From Octopus vulgaris (Eukaryota): a stretch of 64,000 bases of DNA. The stretch lies in assembly GCA_951406725.2 (NCBI GenBank), contig OX597825.1, positions 88,226,001 to 88,290,000 of the forward strand, read 5' to 3'. The notes below the pieces were generated by a model that saw nothing but the letters and a program-made list of their open reading frames with translations, was not told where the DNA came from and ran no database searches. The first letter of the stretch is position 1, and each line of letters starts with the position of its first letter. Of this stretch, positions 1 through 43,670 are shown piece after piece. The translations under genes were made by a program, and so were the position numbers.

Positions 1-3000
1 GAAAAAAAGACGCACACCTACATGGATACGCACGCTTACACACACACACAAACGTACACACACAAAAATGTACACACACATAGATCTAAAATACTATATA
101 TTTAAACAATATTCTTTTATGTAGAATATATAATCAAAGGGCATTCACTTTTCCCCAAACAGTACAACACCGCCACAACAACAACATCAACAACTACTTC
201 TACTACTACAACTACTACTACTGCTTGTTTAGAGTGTTGTGATGCTAATGTCATTAATACGACCAGAATTGTGATGATGATTTGAAATAAGAGAACGGAT
301 TTTTGCATATGGGAAAATACGAGAGTTTGAAGACGATATGAAATGAAGACAATCATGGAAGCGAAATGCCGGTGACAAGTGATGGGATAGCAATGACAAT
401 ACGACTAATGTAGCACAGCTGTTGCTAAATAACAATCGGTTATATCGCTATTATTCATGTCTGCATTTGAGAGCCACTTGCCTTGACAACAAGCGTTAAG
501 TAAGTGAAGTGATATAAAAGTAGGCGAGTGACCTTTCGCGGTAAATAGACCAAATGCCCCATCAATTAAAGCGGCATCGGTAATGCTTCTATCTATCTTC
601 CATATACATTCATATGCGTGTGAGAGTGAGTATGCTTGTGTGCATCCGTGGGTCTGTACATGTATGTATGAACATGTGTGTGAGAGAGCCTCCTTGCCCA
701 TATTTCAGTTTGTATGATTGATTCTGTCTGGAATTGTAGAATTTCTTTGAGCCTCGGGTGTAGACCATTATGTCGGCGCAGACACTGATGCAATGCTTCA
801 CTCACAAAGTTAATTGAATCAATATAATTGCATTTATCATTCTATTATCACCACCTCACCTTCAACACCTTCACCACCAGAAACCCAATCGAACCCTCAC
901 CACCACCACCATCACCACTACCATGATCATCATAATCATCATCATCATCATTTGTAATTACTGACATTATAAAATCCAGATATGTAGTCGTTATCGTCGT
1001 TCCAATCATCCTCGTTATTACTGTAACATTAGTAAAGATTAGCTCTTGATCACTACCACCAGGCGAAAGAAGAGTGACGCATTGTTTCAGCGTATCATGG
1101 GGCCCAGCGTGGAGCGATTGCAGCCGGGTAAGAAAGTCATACATCCTAGACCAAAGCGAATTGCGAGCGAATGAGAGTTTCTCACACACAGGGTAGAAAA
1201 GAGCTAGAGAAGAGCAACTGGATGGAATGGTCATCAATAATTACCTCCACAGACCAATGCTAGTTTCGTTCGAAACGTCATAAGCTAACAAAGGAATATA
1301 CATACATATATACATATATACATGTATATATATATATATATGTATACATATATATATATTTATATATATATATATATACATTCCTATATGTATACGTGAC
1401 ACACATTTCATAACCGTCATCACGTAATGGACACTTAGCTAACACTGTATTTTCACAGTTCAACATCGTCTCACGTCTTACAAAATTTTGTACGATGCTT
1501 CCTGATCGCAATGCAAAAACTCTCAGGAAATCATTTAAAATCTATGGCAATATTTTCTAATAACTCGAAGCATAGTATTTGTTACTACATTTAAAGCCTG
1601 ATGCAGTTAGATGGGTTGCCCATCCAATGTTTCCACCATAAATCCATCTGCCTCTCCTTTCACCTTTTTTTGTTTTAACTATTGAAATTACAAGTGCCAG
1701 TGTTGCTGCAGGTATGAGCTGGCCTCTCGTTAGCACACTTGGAACGAATGTTCTCCTACATCGCAGTTCTAATACTCCACACCGGAACACAGAGTTCTCC
1801 GTTGAGGGCCTTCCTGTTTTACAGTGTTATTATCGATGATGCTTTCGAACCTATTCAATGAATTATGGTTGCCTTATTTTATCCAAACGTTTAGTATGTA
1901 AATGTTTCCGTATTTGATACCCCTTAAACACTCCCCTCGAGGTTTTCAATTCTAACCAAATCCTGTGTAGCATTTAGATAAATGGAAATTTCTAAATCTT
2001 TGTGATCCGCACATGTGGCAGCAGTGACTGTAAGTCTTTTCATTACTTGCGTTAGAAGTCTCTCCTTCAAGACTGACCTAAAAGACATATAAACAATACA
2101 AGCGGTTGGGAAAGAGTAGTATACTAACGATGTTGTGCCCTCAAATACCATTGACACACTAGTGTTTGACATTATAGGATCAGTACAAACTGCTAAAGTT
2201 CCACTGTTGACAGGAAAATCCCCGGAAAATGTATTCTCCAAATCCATTAATTGTACTCGACATCACAGCACCGCGACTTTTGCAACGTCAATTCCCCTCA
2301 TTAGACACTTTAATGTTACTTAATACTAAATATCATACTGGTATGATCATACGGAATGAATACGGCATAGGAAATGGTTAAAACGTTAGAAGTTAGGTTA
2401 ATTAGAGATGGTTTATGGCAATAACAGCGAAGCAATATTATTATATTAGCACATAGCATATATTCACATTAATAATCATCGAAAATTGTACATGTAATGT
2501 ATTGCAGTGCCATCGTGTTTCAGTGCATTTGTCGTCATGCTGGCAGACGCATCTAATGCGAGTTCCATTAGGCTCTTCTCTCTTGTTTTAATAACAATTT
2601 TATAACAACATTTTTACTGAGCTACAAAGTAATGTCCATCACAATCAGAAAGACATTTAAATATTTTCTATATATTAAAACTCTACTGCAACTAGAAGAG
2701 TAACATTCACTCAGAATGCAAGCTATACGATTCCTTTTATTGTGTTAAAAGTGATTTCACGCATTTCCCTTTTATTTGTGATATATGTTTCTGGAACCTT
2801 CTATATGGACAGCTAAAGTTTTCACGAGGCAATGGTTTGTGACGGAGGTAACAAAAAAGAAGAAAAGTGTCGTTTTTAGATGCTTAAACACGACAGATTT
2901 AAAGCGGTCACATATTTCACAGCTTTAACCCCAAAGCTGCAAGAGATTAGATTATCAGTGGAGATTGTGGCGTTTCCTTTTTGTTTCATTTTGAAACAGG

Positions 3001-8399: not shown

Positions 8400-9650
8400 A
8401 TTTCCCTTGGTATGATGGAAAATATCAGCTGTCCACGGGCAGCAGACTAAGGTGTCACTTACTTACTGGTCATGCTTCAAGAAGTCTGCGACAAATTCTT
8501 GCAGTTCCAAGCAATGCTTATTTTTGTAGTTGTTCTACCTTCAAACTCGCACCAATCTATTTTAGCCATGTTGGTAGTTGAGTGCTGATACTTCCAAGTG
8601 CACCAATTACAATTGGTATTCCATCTGCTCTCTTCATTGACCACAACCATCGTATATATCCCACTTCAAATCGTCCTACTTGTTTATTTTTTCTTCTTTC
8701 ACATTGATCCTGCTGCCACTGGGGTCAGTGCTACGTCGATTGCCATACATGTTCTTTCTTTTTTATTGACCTCAACAATATCCGTTTTCCGATGTCCGAT
8801 CGGTTGCTCGCACCGGATCATTTCATCCCACAGGATTGGGCAATATTCATTTTCGGTGATTCCTTCTGGTGTTTCTTCGTACCACATCTTTGCTATTTGT
8901 GGGCCTTGATTTCCAGAGAGCTCCCAATCGATCATTATTGCCACATTGTCATGGCGTCTTTTCTATTCGTGTTGTACCTATTTCGGACATTTCGCTAACT
9001 ACATACCATTCCGTTTCACCAATCTCACCACACATTCTGCATTTGTAGCTATCGCTATTCTTGTCTATTGTGCACTTTATAAAGTTGGTCCTTAACGCTT
9101 GTCCCTAAGCTGCGCATATGAGTACTTCTGTCTCTAACTTCACGTCACCCCACCTCATGCATAGCAACGGATCCTCTGTATATGACTTGGTGTTCACATC
9201 TCTTGCAAACTGGCCGTACATTTTTATCCGTCCATGCTTTTTCTTTCCTGTTTCTTGTTCATGTTCTGTTTAAAGTGTTCTTTCGATGCTCAATTTTTAG
9301 TTCTGACGACGTCGGGCTTCTTCGTGTGTTTCAACAGTGGCTCCCCGGCATTTTTTTATATACGACTCTCAGTTGTTTTTTCTCTGCTCCGATACAGTTC
9401 TAGGAACTGATCAAAACAACTTAACTCTTGTCCATGAGCTGCGCATATGAGTGCTTCTGTCTCTAGCTTCAAATGACTTCTCATCCATAGCCACCAGTCC
9501 TGTGTACCTGTCTTGGCGTTCACTTCTCCTGCAAACTGACCATACATTTTCCTCCTTACATTCTTTTCTGTTCTGGGGGTTTATTTATTTAAAAAAATAT
9601 TCTTTCAGTTCGCAATTTTTAATTTTGATGACACCAGACTTCTTCTTATG
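8400..9650 (-). mobile_element. Decayed R4/Dong-like LINE 3' fragments (two adjacent related segments)
   Basis: YGQFA..KLETE.LICAA occurs twice (about 9100-9230 and 9430-9550); KCRMCGEIGET; WYEETPEGITENE..ILWD; KTDIV..AIDVA; LLGTARI. Confidence 0.8.
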
Positions 9651-31720: not shown

Positions 31721-33636
31721 GTCTGACATTATGTATTTGAAAAGAATGGTAGAAAAGACAAGTTAGAAAAATATTAGGGCTCTTGAAAGAGTTTGTCAAG
31801 CGATGTTGGTGAGGGAGGGGACAAACACAGATGCACAAACATATACACTGACGCCCCCTATACATTTATTTTCAGTTATTCTAACACCAAGTTTTGAAAA
31901 AAAATTGTCAACGTGATATCCTGTCAACTGAAACGAAAAAGTATTTAACTATTTCTAAAGTCAGACTTTAGAGCAAGACTACAAATACTCTCGCTGCCCA
32001 AAGTCAAATCGTTCAGGAAGGAGGACCAGTGGATACTCCTGTTGATGACTGCTAAAATTAATTTGTTTTTAAACCATATGTAATGAGCTAGTTTTTACTC
32101 ATGGAAATGAGTCATTATAGGTACACATAAAGATTACATACGCACATAAGCATGCACACATACATACAAAAACAGACATGCACATGCATATATATACATA
32201 ATTGTGCTCGGGTGCGTACATCTTTCTCTCTGAGGCTATATATCTGAATGTATTATTTCACGCCTGTATGTTTCTGGTTGCAAAGACGGCCATGTGCGCG
32301 CGCAAACGGGTATCAAAGCGAACGATCGATACATTTTCATAAATTAAATTTACAATAAAGTATAATTATGTGGAACATGAAAAGATTAAATTTTATATAA
32401 ATCTTTTAATGTAAGTATTCGAACGATACACGTTTCAATAATTCTCTCTGGAGCGATTTAAAACGATGTTTAATTGGTATAATATCAACATATTTATTCA
32501 AAATATTTATTTTTTCGTTAATTCTTCGACTCTTCTCACTCTTTCCTTATATGGATGCGACCCAGAGCCGTATTATCAAACGAGTGGGCTGGAACATTAT
32601 TTTCTCAATCGGTTTTAAATGTCGAGGCGAAAATGTTATCATCAAAGGTTTGATTCACTGGTAACAGAACGTAACATATACACACAATATTAATATACTG
32701 CAGCGCACAATTTTACTGCATCGGCCGCTTTATGGTCAGATTTAGAATATTCATATTGCTCTCTATTTTTTTTTTAGATATATTTGGGGTTTTTTGTTGA
32801 TTGAGGAGAGTTGGTGCATATGGGTATAAAACTGTGTGTGAATGAGTGTCTTCATAGCTGCAATGGTTAAATGTATCACTCCAAGATCCTGTCTTTTGCT
32901 TTGAGGAAGGCCTGCCAAATGGAACATGCTCACAACATAGCTCGAAATCTTACTGAAACTAATATGAGTGGCGTGAACAGAAACATCCGGTCGTGTAATG
33001 TATAATCATATATTATTTTAATTTCTCATTCATTCTCATTCTGGAACAACTCATTTTCACACTGTTCGCCAGTCAAAATAACGGATGACTTTCCACGTTA
33101 TAAGATTTCAACTTTTTGTCTTATGATATTTTAAACGTTCCTGTTTTTTTTCTTTGTGTGTGTGTGTGTGTGTGTGTGCGTGTGTTAAACATATCGTGTG
33201 TATTTGCATTACCTAGAAATGTTTCTCTGCACACTTTCAGAAATATTCTAAATAAAAGATCATTTATCTTATAACACTCATATCTGAACTGAGCATCAGT
33301 AAGGTGAAATTCGAATAACCAGATGCGAATGTATGTATATATGTATGTATGTACGTATGTATGTATGTACGTATGAATGTATATATGTATGTATGTATGC
33401 ATGCATGAATGTATGTATGAATGTATGTATTTATGTATTTATGTAAGTATGTATGTATGTACGTACGTATGTATGTATTGTCAATGTATGTATGTATGTG
33501 ATGGTGAGAGAGAGAGGGGGGGTAGGTTACATTTGCAAACCTGTAAGTAGAGGCTGAACTTATAATTGTGTAACTGGAATTCGATCCTGTCTGTGGGAGG
33601 TCGGGTGTTTAAATAAAAGGATACTTTTCTTCTCTT

Positions 33637-33768
<132 letters not shown>

Positions 33769-34220: not shown

Positions 34221-35880
34221 ACCGTTACTCTTACACAATCTTTCTATAATTATCGTACATTCTTTTATCACATAATATTTCTACATTTAGGGGAAGTGTT
34301 ATGGACTAAGCGAAACTCTGTCATTAGTGCTGTTTTAATATTATTATACGAGCTATAATCAACAAGTATCCGGACTGTTACCATAGTAACGAAGTAAAAG
34401 CACGCAGAGTAAAGCCGCTAAGCAAAGTTTGACTTCAGTGGCTGTTGTACCTGCGCACTCGGTTTTAATGCTTTAGCTTACTTCCGCTGTTTACAGCAGT
34501 GCTCGGTAATGACGTGTGTAGCGTGTGATCGTTGCATTGAGCATGACAGGAAAAGAGAGGAGTGTATGAGCCGCCCACGAGTGTACGAGTGGTTCAGACG
34601 TTTCGAAGATGGAAGAAAAAATTTCGATATTGATGAATGTTCTGGGAGACCCGCAACAAGCAGAAATGAGAAAAACAATACAGATGTGCGTGAAACTGTG
34701 AGGCGACATCCGTGAGTTTCCAGAAGATGTGCAGATTAGTTATGGCTCAGTTCAGTCCATTATTATTGAAGATTTAGGCATGAGACTCGTGTCTGCCAAG
34801 TTTGTGCCAAAACTGCTTTCAGCTGACCAAAAAGACACTCGGGCTTCAGTTGCTTAGGATCTCCTTCATTGTACGAGAACGTTGAAAACTTTTTGAAAAA
34901 TCGCGTAGACCACTGAGCAGCTAGCATCAAGCTTTTGGTAAAAATAAATTGATACAGATTCTCTGCTCAGAGTTCTCCGTCATACTCGATGCGACCATCA
35001 ACACGTTACACACGTTACTTCCAAACATTGCTGTAAACAGCGGAAGTAAGCCAGAACGTTAAAAGTTAGTGCGCATGCGCAACAGAGTTCAAGATTAATC
35101 TTTGCGAAGCGGCCTCATTCTGCATGCTTTAGCATCATTACAATGACGACAGTCCGGATACTTATTGATCAGTCCACGTATTGATCATGACTCTATGTAA
35201 GATATTGTCCAGCTCCCGGATTCCAAAGTGTCTGTACCCATCATCATTCGGACCTTCCATTATCTCTCCGTAGGGAAATTATATGTCCTTGCCATCTGCT
35301 CGTTTCCCTCGTTTCAAAGTGAGCAACGTACGCTTCGATATACTGAATGCCATCCCTATATTATTGCTGCATATATGCACAATCGCAACCAGCCTCTCCA
35401 TTTCAGGCTCTGTTTTTGCGATCGGTTTTAAATAATCTATGAAGAAAGGCGGTTGAGACGATGACCATTTTTTTGTAAGCTCATACTGCACAAGACGACA
35501 GGAAGTGGGATCAAGTCCATAACAAATAACAAAGGTGAACAAGGGTCTCCCAGAAAGATACCTCTTTTGGTTGCTACCTCTGGTAAGCGCTGGTTGCTAC
35601 AGAAAAGGCGTGTTTTCTAACTAGGCATGCTGTTCTTAATCAACGCACAGGCGTTCTCAAGTATTCCACACATGTCAAGTGTTTCCAAAATCCACGAACA
35701 TGGCAACGTTGTAAGTCTTTTTAATATCTATCCAGGCCATTCACAGGGTTTTTTTGGTACCTTTTACAGTTCTTCATTACAATATTGACTAAGGTGTACC
35801 TTGGTACCCTTGGATCGTTTTCAGCATCCCATTTATTCTACTGGAAGCAGATTACTTTTCGCAAGAAACGTTTAAAAATA
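33790..35880 (-). mobile_element. Older decayed R4/Dong-like RT-region fragment interrupted by a mariner element
   Basis: WIDIKKTYN (cf. WIDYKKAFD), FFIDYLKPIAKTEPEMERLV..SNNIGMAF..LKRGK (cf. YMDDLK..DDIGMEFG), GYRHFGI (cf. YKYLGI); LPKTSGG (cf. LPRAQGG) near 33840. The left boundary is uncertain. Confidence 0.65.
34349..35178 (+). mobile_element. Non-autonomous mariner-derived element with long (~190-bp) imperfect terminal inverted repeats and TA duplication
   Basis: TA|cgag..atcaacaagtatccggactgt versus acagtccggatacttattgat..cg|TA; inner match cttacttccgctgtttacagca / tgctgtaaacagcggaagtaag; mariner HTH remnant SRPRVYEWFRRFEDGR..SGRP and DLGMRLVSAKFVPKLLS; no catalytic domain. Confidence 0.88.
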
Positions 35881-35914
35881 ATGAATAATGAAATAATGAA
35901 ATGTATAGGTTCGT

Positions 35915-36485
35915 TCTTATTATTTTTATTATTGCTCTTAATCACAGGTTGTTTTGGAGACCTTGGAGTCTTGCTACCTGCAACCTATGGTACCATACTA
36001 TCCGTTCTTTTCAGCTATCCATATATTTACTTAAGTTTTCAAATTCCTTTACAGATTTATATTTTATCAGTGGGAACACTTGCACCCATCAGTCTACAAA
36101 TGTTTTCTTCTCTGTCTTTAATGACTGTGTCTCGTCGATTAACCTGGATCGTTCAGTCGTTATTGATTGGAAACACCCAGATGATAGCGACATTTTTACC
36201 TTCAACGACTGGCTCAGGATGATTTTCATAGAAGTAAGCAGGAGTGCTGATTTTGTAGTGCTTGCATGTTTTCCCATGTAAATACGGTCCTACACTATGA
36301 TGGCGATTTTTGTATTCGTTTGGTGTCAGAAGAGGGAATCCCGAGACGAGAAGGTCTAATATTTCTTCGAATTTATTGCAGAATCTGCATTTAAGGTCAC
36401 AAACGTTTTGAAGAACGTTAGCTTGATTGTTCCTTGTAAGCAAGCTTTGATCACGCGTCGCTAATATAAAATATTTAGTCTCTGC
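35915..36485 (-). mobile_element. Decayed 5'-truncated R4/Dong-like LINE 3' fragment
   Basis: LTRNNQANV..KCRFCNKFEEILDLLVSG..EYKNRH..YENHPEPVVEGKNVAIIW aligns by eye to the C-terminus of the intact ORF. Confidence 0.8.
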
Positions 36486-36489
36486 TTTA

Positions 36490-37385
36490 TTATTATTATT
36501 ATTGCCTTTTCGCAGCTACTAACGTTGGAGATGTACTACAGTGTCAACTGTTCACTACCAGTGAGCAAACACCCCTTATTTTTTGAGCACCTTCCGGAGT
36601 ATTCGAGCGGTTCCAAGCAGTGCCGTTTTCTGAAAGTGCTCCACACTTATTGCAGCCCCTATTTGTCCCTTGTACTTCTCAAGAGTTTTACTCACTGTTC
36701 GCAGGGCTCCGACATATATCGGTACTACTACCACCTTTTTCATCGACAACAACCGCTTAACCTCCCATGTTAACCTGTCATATCCATCGACTTTTCTTTC
36801 TTCCTTTTTGCATAACTTGTCAGCTGGGCATGCTATATCTATCGTTTATATCCAGCATCGTTTGCTTTCTTTCTCAATTAACACTGTGTCTGGCTTCCTA
36901 TTCTCCATCTCAAGGCCGCACTCAATCATAAAATACCGATAAGATCTTTGCATTATCATTTTCGATGATGCCTTCGGGTTTATGTTCGTACCACTTTTTT
37001 GTTCTGTCAAGTCCATCCTTGTTGCCAAGTGTCCAATGGACAACCCTTGCTATTTTTTCATGATGTCTCTTATATTCTCTCTGGGCTATTGGCGCGCATT
37101 CACTGGTAATATACCATACGGTTTCACCATTTTGTCCACAAATTCTGCACTTATCACATTCTGCTGAGTTGCAGATTCTGTGTTTGATGTAATTTGTGCT
37201 TAGTGTTTGGTCTTGGCCATCCGTTTCCGGTTTTAAATCACTTATAGTCATCCACAGCCATCTTTTTTCTCTGTTTGTCTTATTTTCAACATCCCTATGA
37301 AATTGTCCATGCATTCTTTTCTTTACCCACCTATTTTCAGTTTCATTCGTTTTCATTTGCTTGTACAGTTCTTTATCTTCGCAAT
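36490..37385 (-). mobile_element. Decayed 5'-truncated R4/Dong-like LINE (knuckle and RLE region)
   Basis: KRMHGQFHRD, DLKPETD..QDQTLSTNY, CRICGQNGETVWYITSEC, WYEHKPEG, NRKPDTVLIEK, GTARILRKVL; frameshifted; ends in (TAA)n near 36490. Confidence 0.85.
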
Positions 37386-37387
37386 CG

Positions 37388-37500
37388 TATTATTATTATC
37401 ATTATTATTATTAACATTATCGTTATTATTATTATTGTTATTATTATCATTATTATCATTATCATTATTATTATCATTATTATTATTATTATTATTATTA
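37388..37500. repeat. Left copy of a ~113-bp direct duplication (probable target-site duplication)
   Basis: Imperfect (TAT)n carrying the interruptions tatcatt...ttaacattatcgtt...attgtta, which recur in the same order at 41705-41817. Confidence 0.85.
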
Positions 37501-40500
37501 TTTTTTTTTTCTTCTTTCAAATTTTCTTCCATTTCTTGCCGAGTGTCTTCCCGACTCCTAGGGCAAAGAAACTCATAGTGTATATTGGTAGGCCATTAAA
37601 CCAAACTCAGTAGTTCGTTCATTTTTTTTTTTTTTTTTTTTTTTAAAGTTAAATTAAAATACATGAGCAGCAACAGTTCTCACATCGACAATGCTCTTCT
37701 CAATACGTGTGATGTACCAGTTAAGACAATCTTTTGCACTTCTTGCAGGGATGGTAAGCCAGGGATCATTCTCATATAATTTTCGGTTCCCTTCTTGATC
37801 ATTCCTAGTGCTCCTACGATCACTGGTATTGTAACCGCCTTGAGATGCCACATTTTCTCAATTTCAATGAGTAGGTCTTTATATTTTCTGAGCTTGTCAA
37901 ACTCTTTCGCTGAGATATTATGATCACAGGGGATGCTCATGTCGATCAATAAGCAAACTTTATTGTTTTGGTCTTTCACAACAATATCTGGTTTATTGGC
38001 CTTGATGGTTCGGTCTGTATGTACTGGAAAGTCCCACAGAATGGTTACATTTTCTCCTTCAGTTACAGCCTCAGGGTGGTGATTATACCACTTGTCGGCA
38101 GTTTTGATATTGTAATGCCGACTTATTAGCCAGTGGAGATATTGGCCAACTTTGTCATGTCTTAATTTATACTCCACTGGTGCTAAAACTTTACATCCAG
38201 AGATTAGGTGGTCCACTGTTTCAATCATGTCGTTGCAGAATCGGCATTTTGGGTCTGCTCCATTTTTCATCACATTGGCCTGGTAGTTCCGGGTTAATAG
38301 GCTTTGGTCTTGAGCAGCCAGGATGAAACCTTCGCTCTCTGCTTTTAGCCCTGAGCTCCGCAGCCACTGATGGGTTTGCTTCTGGTCAACATCAGCTTGT
38401 TTGCTGCGGGTCACATATTTGCCGTGCAGAGGTTTCTCCTCCCACCTATCAGCCAATTGCTCGTGCGCTTTTTTCATTGCCATCATTTTCACCTTCTTTG
38501 CAACAATAGTTGCCGTACTTCCCTCGGGTTGTTCAGTTTGGGTATCCTGCACGAGATCAATAGCAAATTTTTTGCTTTCCTTGATGATAGAATGAAGCTT
38601 CTTTCGTCTCTCGTGATTTTCCACGAGCTTTAGCATCCAGTCATTCGATATTTCGAGATATTTGGCCAGTCCAATTGTGGTTGTTTTGTAAGCTATTTCA
38701 AATTGGATCAGGCCTCGACCTCCTTGGGCTCTGGGAAGGTAAAGGCGATCTACGTCTGCCTTTGGGTGGTGCATCCTATTACAACTCAGCAGCTTGCGTA
38801 TTTTTCTATCTATATTCTTTACTTCACTCATATTCCAGTTCAACACATTGTAGCTATAAGTAACAACTGGAACTGCTAAGGAATTTATAGCTAACACCTT
38901 GTTACGTGCATTTAGTTCAGATTTCAGGACTGCACGAACTCTCCTATAACATTCCTTCCTGATTTTCTCTTTCATGCTTGCATGCTGAATACCAGAGCCT
39001 TCATTTATCCCTAAATATTTGTATGTCTGTTCTTGCTCAAGCTCTCTTATGACTGTGTCAACATCTAACACGACTGAATTTGTGGTCTTCACTTTCCCTT
39101 TCTGGAAAGTGGCCTTGGCACACTTCTCAAGTCCAAACTCCATCCCGATGTCATCGCTGAATGCTTTCACTGTGCGCAATAGGCCTTCAAGTTCATTATT
39201 GTCTTTACCATAAAGTTTTAAGTCATCCATATAAAATAGATGGCTTATTTTTTTATTGGCAATTTTATACCCATACCCTGTTCTGTTTAATTCACTTGTA
39301 AGGGGTATTAGGGCTATGCAGAATATTAAAGGTGAAAGTGAGTCACCTTGAAAAATTCCACAGTTGATGTTTATATTTTCTGAGGCAAGTACTCCATTAG
39401 AGTGGTATAATTGGAGATTCGTATTCCACAACGACATATTGTGCTTCAGGAAGTTTGAAATCACAGGGGAAATTTTAAAGATGTCCAGCGATCTCAAGAT
39501 CCATGGATGCGGTATACTGTCGAAGGCCTTTTTATAGTCAATCCATGCGGTGCTGAGATTTCTGCGCTTGTTGTGACAGTTCTCAAGGATCATACGATTG
39601 ATTAGCAGTTGATCTTTGCATCCGTAAGAGCCTCGGCGGCACCCTTTTTGTTCAATGGGGAAAATATCGTTCTTCTCCATGAATGCATATGTTTTCTCCG
39701 CCAGGATAGATGTTAGGATTTTATACGTGGTGGATAGACAGGTTATAGGCCGATAGTTTTTTGGAAGGTTGGTTTCGTTATTCTTTGGGAGTAGGTAAGT
39801 AATGCCACTTGCTAACCATTCAGGTGTTTTCTTTGGGTCTCTCAAAATTCCATTAAGCAGCTGAACTAGCTTACCGTGTGCGCACGGGAGCGATGCGAGC
39901 CAGAAATTCGGCACCCTATCTTTACCGGGGGATTTCCAATTATGGGCCTTCGTGAGTGCCTTTCTTAGGTCTACTATTGTGATGTCTTCCCATGCTTGTT
40001 GTTGTAAATTTTGGTAGGATCCTTCAGTTTGTATAATCCAGTCTGCATTTATGTTGTACGTCTTCTTGTCACTCCAAATCCTTTCCCAAAAGTTTTGAAC
40101 TTCTTCCATGGGAGGAGGGTCTTTAACGGTTACTTTCTCCTTCCCTATTTCTCTGTAGAATTTTTTGGCATTGGATGTGAACAGCTTATTTTGCTTGTAA
40201 AACTTGTTTCTCTTCTCAAATCTTCGTATTCTTTGGGCTTTTGCTTGGACTTTTTGTTTCAGCGTTTCTTTTATTGATATCAGTTCTTCTCTTGGTGAGG
40301 ATCCAAATTTTCTCTTCATCTTTCTTCCTGTTCTGGATCTTACATCATTTCCACATATTAGTTCATTTAATATTGATATTTCCCCTCTCATAAATTCAAT
40401 CTCTTTTTCAATTTTACTTCTCCAGGTTTGATTTCTTCCCAGGTTTTGTTTTCTTTGTTTTTTCGGGGGCATACAGCTGGTTTCAATTGCCCTAGCAGAA

Positions 40501-41704
40501 GCGTAAATAATTTCATTTAACTCAGTAAAATCAGGTTTTAATTCTCGTATTATTTCATTTGTTACATAGTTGCCAATTTGGATTTGTTTTTTATTTTGGT
40601 TTGTATTTGAGAGTTTATGAAGCGGTTCTCTATCATTCATACTTGTATGTCTTACAACTTCAAGCGTATTCAGGATTTTCTGCCTCATTTCTGCCATAGA
40701 CTCTCTGTGTTCTTCAGCAAATGCGAGATCTTCAGTTACTGTTGTTTTTTCGTTTTCCTGGCTATCTTTAACAGGTACAATAGAATTTCTTGTATCTTCA
40801 GGCCTTTGCGTACTTTGGTCAGATGGCAGTCTTTCAATTAAGCCTCGTGGCGGGCTATACTGTTCATCTGATTCTTCATTTCCTTTGTGTCTTATATTTA
40901 TGTCATTTTCCGTTGCGTGCTTGATCGCACTTATTTCACTGTCTGTGAGTCTGTTATTTCTAAAGATATCCCTCCTCACATTTGCTAATTTGTTCTCGTC
41001 CAAATAGGGCCTACTGTCTTGATTCCGTGTTCTCCATATACTGTAAGAGTTTGCGGTGTGTCTCTCTTGAGATGGCCTACCTAATGCATAGTAATAAGCG
41101 TATATTACTTCTTTATACTCTTCTCGGGTCCATTTGTTCCGCTTACATTTTTCTTTCTGTGGTGGTTGTGGTGGTGAACTTGGAGGGCTCGAGTTGGGAG
41201 ATTTCCCGTTCAAGTGACCATCCATGTCCGTATTCGGAGAAGAGTTTGTGCCAGTTGATGACTTTTCGATCCCAGGCTGGCTCTTCCCTGGGGGACGCGC
41301 TTCCAGATTAACCATAGGACAAGCGATTTGGTATACTGATTTAGTTTTCCTTTTAGTTTCCAAAAACATTTTGGTGCTACGATAATGTTATCATTTTTTA
41401 GCTTTGATTGGCTCGTGGGGAGACGGCCATCATTGCCGTTACAATTATAACCGTACCATTATAGCAGCCGTAGTCGGCTTATTATTGTTATTATCTTCAC
41501 CATTACCATCACTATCATCATTATCACCACCATTACCATCATCATCATTATCATCATCACCATCACCATCACCACCATCATCATCAATGATATTGTTTTA
41601 TGTGTAGTCACAGCAGTATCTTATTATTGTTATTTTTGTTTTTTTATCATTATCACCATCACAGTAGTGTCTGTCTGTCTCGTTGGCTGGCTTGTTATTA
41701 TTAT
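37501..41704 (-). mobile_element. Full-length R4/Dong-like LINE including 5' leader and 3' UTR, inserted in a (TAA)n microsatellite
   Basis: ORF above; 3' UTR 37511-37679 with an internal A-run; terminal A10 joined directly to (TAA)n; bounded by the direct duplication 37388-37500 / 41705-41817. Confidence 0.85.
37680..41369 (-). CDS. Uninterrupted ORF of an RLE-type non-LTR retrotransposon (R4/Dong-like): N-terminal domain, reverse transcriptase, CCHC zinc knuckle, restriction-like endonuclease
   Basis: 1229-aa ORF. N-terminal KWTREEYKEVIYAYY motif. RT motifs KSPGKD, NYRPITCL, WIDYKKAFDSIPH, GIFQGDSLSP, HLFYMDDLK, YKYLG. CRFC-x8-H-x4-C knuckle. RLE motif KPD..IDMSIP..K..KY. No APE endonuclease domain. 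The true start could be the later Met in MVNLEARPPG. Confidence 0.93.
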   Translation of the reverse strand: MFLETKRKTKSVYQIACPMVNLEARPPGKSQPGIEKSSTGTNSSPNTDMDGHLNGKSPNSSPPSSPPQPPQKEKCKRNKWTREEYKEVIYAYYYALGRPSQERHTANSYSIWRTRNQDSRPYLDENKLANVRRDIFRNNRLTDSEISAIKHATENDINIRHKGNEESDEQYSPPRGLIERLPSDQSTQRPEDTRNSIVPVKDSQENEKTTVTEDLAFAEEHRESMAEMRQKILNTLEVVRHTSMNDREPLHKLSNTNQNKKQIQIGNYVTNEIIRELKPDFTELNEIIYASARAIETSCMPPKKQRKQNLGRNQTWRSKIEKEIEFMRGEISILNELICGNDVRSRTGRKMKRKFGSSPREELISIKETLKQKVQAKAQRIRRFEKRNKFYKQNKLFTSNAKKFYREIGKEKVTVKDPPPMEEVQNFWERIWSDKKTYNINADWIIQTEGSYQNLQQQAWEDITIVDLRKALTKAHNWKSPGKDRVPNFWLASLPCAHGKLVQLLNGILRDPKKTPEWLASGITYLLPKNNETNLPKNYRPITCLSTTYKILTSILAEKTYAFMEKNDIFPIEQKGCRRGSYGCKDQLLINRMILENCHNKRRNLSTAWIDYKKAFDSIPHPWILRSLDIFKISPVISNFLKHNMSLWNTNLQLYHSNGVLASENININCGIFQGDSLSPLIFCIALIPLTSELNRTGYGYKIANKKISHLFYMDDLKLYGKDNNELEGLLRTVKAFSDDIGMEFGLEKCAKATFQKGKVKTTNSVVLDVDTVIRELEQEQTYKYLGINEGSGIQHASMKEKIRKECYRRVRAVLKSELNARNKVLAINSLAVPVVTYSYNVLNWNMSEVKNIDRKIRKLLSCNRMHHPKADVDRLYLPRAQGGRGLIQFEIAYKTTTIGLAKYLEISNDWMLKLVENHERRKKLHSIIKESKKFAIDLVQDTQTEQPEGSTATIVAKKVKMMAMKKAHEQLADRWEEKPLHGKYVTRSKQADVDQKQTHQWLRSSGLKAESEGFILAAQDQSLLTRNYQANVMKNGADPKCRFCNDMIETVDHLISGCKVLAPVEYKLRHDKVGQYLHWLISRHYNIKTADKWYNHHPEAVTEGENVTILWDFPVHTDRTIKANKPDIVVKDQNNKVCLLIDMSIPCDHNISAKEFDKLRKYKDLLIEIEKMWHLKAVTIPVIVGALGMIKKGTENYMRMIPGLPSLQEVQKIVLTGTSHVLRRALSM

Positions 41705-41790
41705 TATTATTATTATCATTATTATTATTAACATTATCGTTATTATTATTATTGTTATCATTATCATTATTATCATTATCATTATTATTA

Positions 41791-41817
<27 letters not shown>
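41705..41817. repeat. Right copy of the ~113-bp direct duplication
   Basis: Same interruption pattern as 37388-37500; one visible mismatch (gttattatt vs gttatcatt). Confidence 0.85.
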
Positions 41818-41828
<11 letters not shown>

Positions 41829-43670
41829 TATTATTATTATTATTATTAATGGCTATGGAAATACTAGATACTAAATAACGTACTATGAGGAATAACTAAT
41901 TGAATCAGTGTGGACGCAAAATTTATTTAAATTCATCACTTTTTCTGCTCTCAAGATAATTGCATTCAAAAATAGTTTCCGGTAATATCACGAGTAACTA
42001 TTTAAAACAATTTCGTGTTTTCAACAGGAAAGCATTTGATAACCGTTTTGCAAAAGAGAAAATAATTAATCGCAAATGCTTTCCTTTCAACGGGACATTT
42101 GTTATAAGAATTACCATCTCATAAATCTGAGAGCTTGTTAATTTAGTGGCACTTCTGTTCATCAAGTTAATCCATTCTGCAATAAGATTTTTTACTGTCT
42201 AAACTTAACAAGATTTAAAATAACCAGAGTGATATTGTATATATTTCTAATCAACTAAAATAATTGCGTTGCTTTACTTCCATACATGTAATTAATGTTA
42301 CACTCAATCAACTCAGTTTGATACTCCTGGCACAAATGTCAATCATGTTGATATAAATTTCTAATCCCGCAAAACCAACTTTCGCAACAGAAATTCTAAT
42401 AGCAATCGTAATCTAAACTCATTCTCATGATTTCCCTACAGCCATGCAGCTGCTTACATGCTCAACAGTACACAATAGGACCATCAACAACGGAATAGAT
42501 GAATAGCAAGCAGTTTCAATCCGGCAACTCTAGTTCTGTCCTAATAAACTTTATAACATTTCCAAAACTTTTATACACGAATTCATTCAATTTTGCTCTT
42601 TAACTCTTCATATATTCCAAATGTATCTTCTAATTAACCTACATTGTGACTATCCTCATTCAAATTAAAGATTGCTGACGTTCATTAATGCATTTCCGAA
42701 CATCCTATCCCCCTCTCCATGTATCTTTCCCATAGATTAACAGACTTCATCGTCTTTCATAGGAAAAGCGTCTGGAAGTATCTCTCTACTCTGAACCATT
42801 CAGAAAGCCTCTACTTAGACTTTCCAACCGATAGGAATAGGTAATAATTCCCCTTTGAGGTACGGCATAGAATGTTAAATGAAATGCGTTAATCTTACAT
42901 ACAAAAGCTGAGACAAAAACATAAAAAAATACGAATGCCTCTGTTCACAATCCAGTCCATAAGATAATGGCTGACCTGAGTTTGAACAACAATAACAATC
43001 TCTGTACGTTTGTTTCTCAAAATAAAGTCAGTCACTTAATTCACCATGGACGGTAACAAAAGTTGATATACGCAATCATCACATCTATCTCTGTAATATT
43101 GCCAAACACGAAACAAACATAATCATCTTGTCATACTCTCACATCTCAACACACAGTTTCTTTAAATCTGACTCTCCTCTAAAGGACAAGCGATTCAGGA
43201 AAAGAAGTCAGTATATTCAGTAAAAACAACAAAGCGATCACGTTGAAACATTTGCCAATTAATTTTCGAAAATCATTATCTTTCATTTCAGCAGATGTGG
43301 TTTGAGCAAACAAAAGCAATCTATCCTTTTGAATTAAGATAAAAGTGTCACGCTTTTATAAAAGAAGATCTACCTGGCGATGATACGAGCTTAGTAATAA
43401 TATGAGAATTTATAGATACAGTCACTGAATAAAAAGGCATCGAGTAATATGTCAGCCGGTGAATGTAGCATCTGAAAGAACAAGGGAAAACTGAAATAAA
43501 TGCAACCGAGGTAGATGGACTGTTATGTAGAATTTGACAACTACTCAGCCGAAAATATAGATGTATATGTTTCTTTATATATGCATATGAATATAAATGT
43601 ATCAACAGATATGTACGCAGACACGTTCACACTCATATATATGCAAACACACACAGACACACAGACACAC

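Follow-up and report, generated by a model that had tools for sequence, protein, structure and literature searches.

Within the R4 clade, Dong and Dong-like elements have been described as Bombyx Dong, DongAg, DongBg and the ostracod Dong1/2 (PMC7998251, PMC3812793, PMC3774820). According to the accessible text of these sources, they have in common with the LINE copy analyzed here a single ORF with reverse transcriptase (RT) and restriction-like endonuclease (RLE), the absence of an N-terminal zinc finger, (TAA)n on both sides and the stacking of successive copies at one tract; the Myb/SANT-like N-terminal domain, which is diverged in the R4/Dong clade (PMC7998251), may have a counterpart in our copy. 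Unlike in Dong, A10 precedes the TAA run here, and the HDV-like ribozyme reported at the 5' junction of Bombyx Dong and R4 (PMC3774820) was not found in this element. R4 makes a 13-bp duplication (PMC6895275, PMC13486585), compared with 76–115 bp at the present locus. The supplement of PMC13282606 devotes a single table row to Dong-R4, and the literature searched, as far as its text was accessible, gave neither a target-site duplication (TSD) length for Dong nor a long TSD in a TAA tract; subscription papers and Repbase entries may hold such information.

Long footprints are, in contrast, already known for some other LINEs. R9 (R9Av) of the rotifer Adineta vaga is cited with a 126-bp TSD (PMC13486585, PMC6895275); it is likewise a LINE of the RLE type, and its duplication is comparable in size, but it is R2-derived and rDNA-specific, and its 126 bp are cited as an element property, whereas our element sits in a microsatellite and the long duplication has been seen at one locus. 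R2 variants with a crippled second nick produce duplications of about 1 kb (PMC13486585), and a class of L-TSDs (>20 bp) is known for L1 and ZfL2 inserts (PMC4245944, PMC2666801). These cases, in which the second nick failed or was made by the host, resemble ours in that the long duplication is occasional and the usual footprint short; they are, however, insertions of R2, L1 and L2 in cell culture, and ours is a copy found in a genome and inserted into a repeat, so that the length of its duplication is readable only because the tract is interrupted. The premise of the original prediction, that TSDs of such elements extend to about 20 bp, thus overlooked R9 and the L-TSD class, and what can be said of the present family is that a long footprint has been seen once so far. 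How the second strand is broken in RLE LINEs other than R2 is, according to a paper from 2026 (PMC13486585), still to be settled.

In the window, i.e., the whole 64-kb stretch of DNA that was analyzed, a minus-strand LINE lies between two copies of an interrupted TAA/TAT tract (Table 1). The best ungapped match between the flanking tracts (37388–37502 = 41705–41819) has an offset of 4317 and spans 115 bp with one mismatch (T at 37442, C at 41759), and 10 of 10 non-TAT bases, belonging to nine interrupted triplets between 37400 and 37475, are in register in both copies. This offset scored 111, while the next 14 best of 80 offsets tried scored at most 58 with 8–19 mismatches. Triplet shuffling of the left tract (2000 rounds) yielded a maximum of 78 and a median of 60, and the best match among other TAT tracts in the window, the pure 33636–33768 run, scored 75 and 84 against the two copies. 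The predicted presence of the tract on both sides, including offset and single mismatch, was thereby confirmed. The tract copies (G+C 7.8%) form a direct repeat that bounds the insert, adjoining A10 at one end and the 5' segment at the other, with 10 extra repeat bases between insert and upstream copy; beyond them the sequences are unrelated, with a unique flank upstream and an older decayed RLE copy downstream. As only 76 bp are pinned by interruptions and the remainder is pure TAT that cannot be assigned, the duplication measures 76–115 bp, the predicted value being about 113 bp, and a length surely above 100 bp is not claimed. The tract lies outside a young RLE LINE with an intact frame and, as originally proposed, is best read as a TSD; that its copies are a real long duplication caused by insertion of the element is likely, read as they are from assembled sequence in which contig and read mapping omitted the repeat stretches at both junctions. 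The empty site would then have been a single tract of ~144 bp.

Table 1. Features of the insertion and its surroundings (window positions).
Feature	Position	Strand	Basis
Additional decayed RLE fragments	35186..36487	-	36488-36066 at 52% identity; 35868-35186 at 27-30%
Older, decayed, 5'-truncated RLE element at distal tract end, followed by only (TAA)5	36503..37387	-	tblastn 37344-36585, 32-34% identity
Downstream (3'-side) copy of interrupted (TAA)n tract	37388..37502	-	interruptions in 37400-37475
A10 at element 3' end; 2 bases shared with duplicated tract	37501..37510	-	sequence
3' UTR, internal A23 at 37622-37644	37511..37679	-	sequence, ORF stop
One uninterrupted ORF of 1235 aa between stops; residue 7 is the first Met	37680..41387	-	ORF translation
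Structured 5' leader, starting right after a short (TAA) run	41388..41478	-	folding z -3.5 for 41350-41490
GAT/GGT-rich segment, 216 bp	41479..41694	-	sequence; largely outside contig mapping coverage
Extra TAA-repeat bases (10) at 5' junction, missing from downstream copy	41695..41704	-	tract comparison
Upstream (5'-side) copy of interrupted tract	41705..41819	-	tract comparison
Unduplicated remainder of target tract, 29 bp	41820..41848	-	tract comparison

The element is R4/Dong-like, an assignment drawn from its domain layout and the (TAA)n ends of its relatives; TAA tracts flank the element itself on both sides as well. Its single ORF encodes RT (aa 534–795; RVT_1, E 9.8e-30; YMDD at 719), followed by a CCHC motif (CX2CX8HX4C at 1048–1065) and the RLE (PD..D at 1132–1153, KxxKY at 1165), with C1048, C1051, H1060, C1065, P1133 and D1134 invariant in 45 aligned sequences. 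PDB sequence matches of the protein were to R2-type proteins only, and no named R4 or Dong protein was among the matches returned in the relative searches. The rDNA target and N-terminal zinc fingers of the R9/R2 clade are lacking, the target being a TAA microsatellite and residues 1–400 containing no C2H2-type pattern. A four-helix domain is predicted at about aa 80–165 (pLDDT 90). Its VIA structure matches, all with Z below 8 and with an unrelated entry ranked top, included Zeste (Z 5.8, rmsd 2.9, 67 aligned), ISWI (Z 5.5), R2 residues 147–215 (Z 5.4, rmsd 4.0, 69 aligned) and TRF-type Myb domains; Foldseek returned none at E ≤ 0.001 and Pfam at E 10 gave no name for it. The modelled fold is a candidate Myb/SANT-like domain.

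The copy is one of a large, many-copy family: 18167 and 11152 contigs mapped to the element in two samples, contig depth not being equivalent to copy number, and raw-read mapping of two runs contributed only 1 and 22 reads. At 8 of 39 listed places (8 further rows lie outside that list), the letter in the window is clearly in the minority, which marks the element as an individual copy at a distance of roughly 0.2–0.4% from the family majority. This distance predicts 0.3–0.9 mismatches between the tract copies, and one was observed, which fits the predicted recency of the event, deduced there from near identity; the element appears young. Less clear is where the insert begins. In other samples, the 5' leader is present in many copies at least as far as about 41400–41450, and neither Rfam at gathering score nor our own patterns for HDV-like and hammerhead ribozymes, the HDV descriptor being used without a positive control, matched within the element. 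The 216-bp segment beyond the leader is either outer 5' UTR or donor-site flank acquired by 5' transduction, which leaves the true 5' end of the insert uncertain.

A little better than even is the chance we assign to the following reading: target-primed reverse transcription of an R4/Dong-like LINE with a distant second break, giving a 76–115-bp TSD as an occasional outcome. The first nick, made by the element protein, would lie on the bottom strand within the long pure stretch of (TAA)11 in the ~144-bp tract and would have primed reverse transcription at the A-rich 3' end of the RNA. The top strand would have been broken far downstream, by the element nuclease or through a host-made break, within the final (TAA)4 on the tract's distal edge, which coincides with the place where the older RLE copy had joined. 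The cDNA end may then have been joined to this break through TAA microhomology, leaving the 10 extra repeat bases, while the stretch between the breaks, 92% A+T, would have been unwound and filled in on both sides. The distant break is likely but not forced, since extension of the primer on target DNA and unequal allelic exchange would both end in the same product; a second-strand nick more than 100 bp away, as originally proposed, is therefore not established, with 76 bp pinned and these two other routes leading to the same sequence.

In the former of these routes, which we consider improbable though the least so among the rivals, the two strands were cut close to the distal edge and the primer was extended, with strand displacement, by 76–115 bases on the target top strand before jumping to the A-rich end of the RNA. 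It takes its appeal from the older neighbour, which permits a duplication of only about 17 bp and whose two junctions lie no more than about 17 bp from the distal edge, so that the unusual junction at our locus would be the 3' one; LINE RT is moreover reported, in the accessible part of the source, to use DNA and RNA templates, displace strands and jump between templates (PMC6895275), and at the one mismatch the downstream copy has returned to pure TAT, which an error in copying could have brought about. However, we found no element in which such extension is shown to precede engagement of the RNA, the pure TAA run that holds the 3' junction is the longest one, where a first nick would naturally be expected, and the neighbour used as precedent belongs to a different, old family (32–34% identity). 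The other route, to which we would give about one chance in ten, assumes a short duplication at insertion and a second tract copy added later by unequal exchange or conversion with the empty allele upon misalignment of TAA runs. The mismatch could then be an allelic difference, the crossover could have left its trace in the 10 extra TAA bases of the 5' junction (both features suit this origin equally well), and the short duplications permitted by relatives would be accounted for. Against this, the crossover must have fallen within about 12–20 bp of pure repeat and then been transmitted, and one mismatch is already explained by the age of the insertion itself.

An assembly artefact, in which filled and empty haplotypes were merged or a repeat was mis-polished, seems similarly unlikely. 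Both junctions lie outside read and contig mapping coverage in a locus rich in repeats; yet the 64 kb contain no N and a 1.1-kb TA array is resolved, which suggests a long-read assembly, the element carries private letters instead of a collapsed majority sequence, and the tract copies are not identical, with one base changed and unequal numbers of outer repeats. Still more doubtful is a succession of two events, where the 216-bp segment, as a retro-sequence of its own, made the long duplication and the LINE later hit the TAA run at its 3' end, in which case the duplication would be real but not that of this LINE. The short TAA run preceding the structured leader at 41478, the resemblance of the segment to a decayed microsatellite and the relatives' habit of starting directly after a TAA run would suit this scenario. 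It would need two insertions close in time, as the tract copies differ at one base only; blastn found the segment only once in the window, and 5' UTR or 5' transduction accounts for it in a single event. Very improbable, finally, is the notion that the interrupted tract is part of the element, as terminal repeat or carried flank, rather than target DNA. Contig mapping did stop short of the junctions of sister copies, but the upstream copy continues into more TAA and unique flank while the downstream copy adjoins the old truncated element, and relatives' ends are mostly pure TAA, with no interruption series found to be common to both ends.

To judge how general the target-primed insertion with a long duplication might be, we turn to the flanks of relatives, all of them distant (about 30–65% identity); an initial search of metagenomes by the C-terminal 306 aa had found none, and an alignment-based scan retrieved them. 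The fetched relatives include 35 3' ends with a TAA/AAT run within 700 bp; they begin directly after a TAA run, end mostly in (TAA)n, and truncated ones (L075, L094) join right where the run ends. A duplication above 57 bp would fit at none of the 10 closed loci with two flanks (of 52 loci, 13 carried runs on both sides), a control weakened by short metagenome contigs that may be collapsed from several copies, and one above 34 bp was seen at 0 of 39 3' ends in a distant family, where many copies are old or internally deleted, which weakens this control, too. Repeats reaching past the TAA runs were not found in the relatives' flanks: matches of 211 bp (L085) and 42 bp (L033) turned out to be the 5' end of the next tandem element, and one of 34 bp (L141) a tandem unit. 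With no tested relative permitting so long a duplication, the general bearing on microsatellite-targeting RLE elements claimed by the original prediction is not established, and the long duplication does not look like a clade trait or rule but like an occasional outcome.

One further possibility deserves mention, albeit as a rather unlikely one, namely that elements of this Dong-type family cut the strands near the tract start and at the far edge and so routinely duplicate most of the TAA tract, duplication length then being set by the tract and not by the protein. Upstream and downstream run lengths correlated in the 10 closed relatives (rho 0.88; random-split P 0.0007), in a post hoc comparison of mixed hosts and assemblies. 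In 19 copies of the distant G001 family rho was −0.65, upon which the idea that whole tracts are generally duplicated was rejected for that family; this value and the mere (TAA)5 behind the older neighbour count against routine duplication. If it were true, these elements would be microsatellite duplicators with a footprint that pure repeats conceal.

The stagger of elements whose target is a pure repeat is normally unreadable, and the present locus provides one readable case, of 76–115 bp. Interrupted tracts could serve as rulers across the hundreds of young copies that such a genome likely holds. If long staggers turned out to be usual, Dong elements would join R9 as the second RLE lineage whose footprint is long, and TAA repeats would grow through them; should they prove rare, this locus would be one more example of the occasional long TSD.

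The two copies of the interrupted tract that flank the minus-strand element align without a gap over 115 bp at an offset of 4317, with a single mismatch, and all ten bases departing from pure TAT are found in register in both. Triplet shuffles of the left tract (n = 2000) scored at most 78 and the closest unrelated TAT tract within the window 75–84, compared with 111 for the pair, and the original observation of such a tract on both sides of the element is confirmed. A long duplication placed around the insert is real in the assembly. Because the interruptions cover the inner part of the downstream copy (see table), 76 bp are certainly duplicated; of the ~113 bp originally proposed, the long in-register repeat stands, while the outer parts are pure repeat and may extend the duplication to a maximum of 115 bp. 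On the upstream side, 10 extra repeat bases adjoin the element and 29 unduplicated bases continue the tract before unique flank begins; from this, a single tract of ~144 bp is expected at the empty site. Probably by chance, the most distinctive interruption, 12 bases long, is the reverse complement of a stretch where the frame of the element begins.

Coordinates of the duplicated tract, the element, its neighbors and tRNA-like heads in fetched relatives
Feature	Sequence	Position	Strand	Remarks
Tract copies, downstream / upstream	window	37388–37502 / 41705–41819
Single mismatch between copies	window	37442 / 41759
Interruptions, downstream copy	window	37400–37475
12-base interruption / its match	window	37412–37423 / 41379–41390
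Element	window	37503–41694	−	A10 end, 3' UTR, one 1235-aa frame, ~300 bp 5' sequence
Contig gaps in 3' UTR	window	37572–37680
Folded 5' leader region	window	41350–41490	−	leader begins at 41478
Decayed RLE fragment	window	tract edge to about 36503	−	then (TAA)5; more fragments beyond
(TAA)5 separator	window	36488–36502
Stack of decayed RLE fragments	window	35186–37387	−
Segment with inverted repeats	window	34358–35169
Decayed RLE 3' fragment	window	8479–8962	−
tRNA-like head	L006	84–168
tRNA-like head	L008	10–90
tRNA-like head	L061	105–180
tRNA-like head	L085	560–625

The element protein contains an RVT_1 domain, and its CX2CX8HX4C and PD..D endonuclease motifs are invariant across 45 aligned sequences; no N-terminal zinc finger was found in it. 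Its predicted four-helix N-terminal domain gave modest structural matches (Z under 8), including Myb/SANT proteins and the R2 N-terminal region, and the solved structures matched by sequence were only R2-type proteins. Among 867 protein matches at E ≤ 0.001 (best 67% identity), the names R4 or Dong are absent from the 120 listed. Most fetched relatives terminate in (TAA)n and carry a TAA run before their start, and R4/Dong elements are described as having the same anatomy as the element and these relatives (PMC7998251, PMC3812793). By anatomy the element is a Dong-like LINE. That the tract itself belongs to the element is very improbable. At the 5' end, the outermost 216 bp are GAT/GGT-rich and could be UTR or carried flank; the structured leader, which begins directly after a short TAA run, folds better than 200 of 200 shuffles (z −3.5) and matched no Rfam family. 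Around an internal A23 of the 3' UTR, one sample's contigs omit ~100 bp and another's have loose ends, reflecting either length variants or the effect of a skipped repeat.

In two other samples the family occurs in many copies (18167 and 11152 matching contigs). The element's letter is a clear minority at 8 of the 39 places listed (8 further rows lie beyond these), which would put it roughly 0.2–0.4% from the family majority; therefore, 0.3–0.9 mismatches are predicted between the tract copies and one is seen, so that the recent insertion proposed from their near identity is roughly borne out and the element appears young. As a curiosity, its length equals the mean for those Dong-R4 insertions of Octopus vulgaris that were active recently (4,732,901/1129 = 4192 bp; PMC13282606).

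The likeliest reading of the duplicated tract is a genuine, long target-site duplication (TSD) around this young LINE, and, taking the respective readings together, it probably arose during insertion. For the route as a whole (distant top-strand break, microhomology joining, fill-in), we lean just slightly in favor. The first nick would lie in the long pure run of the tract, the top strand would be broken at the distal edge 76–115 bases on, the ends would be joined via TAA microhomology, and the 92% A+T stretch would be unwound and then filled in. A distant second-strand break persists as the preferred reading, at 76–115 bases and thus not surely the more than 100 bp originally proposed, but the same sequence is expected from cutting near the distal edge, extension of the primer on target DNA and a subsequent jump to the RNA; this course of events is unlikely, although its product would be indistinguishable from that of a distant top-strand break. 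It is improbable, too, that a filled allele later underwent unequal exchange with an empty one, and an assembly artefact is just as improbable.

Decayed RLE fragments are stacked directly downstream of the tract; they number at least two and probably three, and (TAA)5 stands between two of them. The tract thus reads as a landing site used repeatedly, with copies stacked there over time. The duplication of the older neighbor would be at most ~17 bp, unless its run shrank later, and a nested two-step history of the long duplication is quite improbable. Elsewhere in the window, a further decayed RLE 3' fragment shows 34% identity to the element's protein, and a segment of ~810 bp bounded by 21-bp inverted repeats (20/21 alike, seen by eye) looks like a Tc1/mariner-type remnant.

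The ORF end is reached in 52 of the 97 fetched loci. TAA runs flank 13 loci on both sides, and in 10 of those 13 there is flank past each run. With the shorter run taken as upper bound on each duplication, these closed relatives allow 12–57 bp, below 76 in 10/10. At 39 3' ends of a ~40%-identical family (35 regions, host contigs of one genome bin), many of them from old or deleted copies, no flanking repeat exceeded 34 bp, and the 34-bp repeat is a tandem unit. Upstream and downstream run lengths correlated in the ten closed loci (rho 0.88, random-split P 0.0007; noticed post hoc) and in the six with long flanks (rho 0.94), as whole-tract duplication predicts; run lengths particular to each host, assembly, or insertion into the middle of a tract can also explain this. 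In the only family tested singly, rho was −0.65 (19/39 ends kept: identity ≥88% plus a TAA run) and −0.25 for the 8 ends with runs on both sides. That whole-tract duplication is the rule of the element's family is unlikely, and the bearing on microsatellite-targeting RLE elements generally that had been proposed comes down to one readable locus, with none of the closed relatives allowing ≥76 bp. Several relatives begin with a tRNA-like head that follows a repeat or A/T-rich run: the head of L006 is tRNA-Gly by ARAGORN (30.3 bits in Rfam), and similar ones were seen by eye in L008, L061 and L085. These LINEs may have a 5' end of the Pol III type. The prokaryotic genome bins G001, G002 and G003 (e.g., loci L084, L085, L090, L094) gave 95, 61 and 31 RLE retrotransposon matches; the contigs bearing them are likely contaminating eukaryotic host DNA, and some weak matches may be bacterial RTs.

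The literature searched, with key subscription papers outside its scope, gave no TSD length for Dong elements. TSDs of RLE elements measure 126 bp for R9, 13 bp for R4 and 9 bp for R8 (PMC6895275); those of Utopia measure 0 or 20 bp (PMC4640811). For L1 and ZfL2 inserts, TSDs >20 bp form a class of their own, which is rare in one insert set (1/25; PMC4245944, PMC2666801). R2 with a crippled second nick leaves duplications of ~1 kb, for which its authors speculate that host single-strand breaks are the source (PMC13486585). The R9 value is a known long duplication by an RLE element, compared with 76–115 bp here, and our locus is one readable case of an already known kind of outcome. Its value hinges on the genome-wide count of such duplications; were whole-tract duplication the family's rule, the interest of the locus would be much greater.
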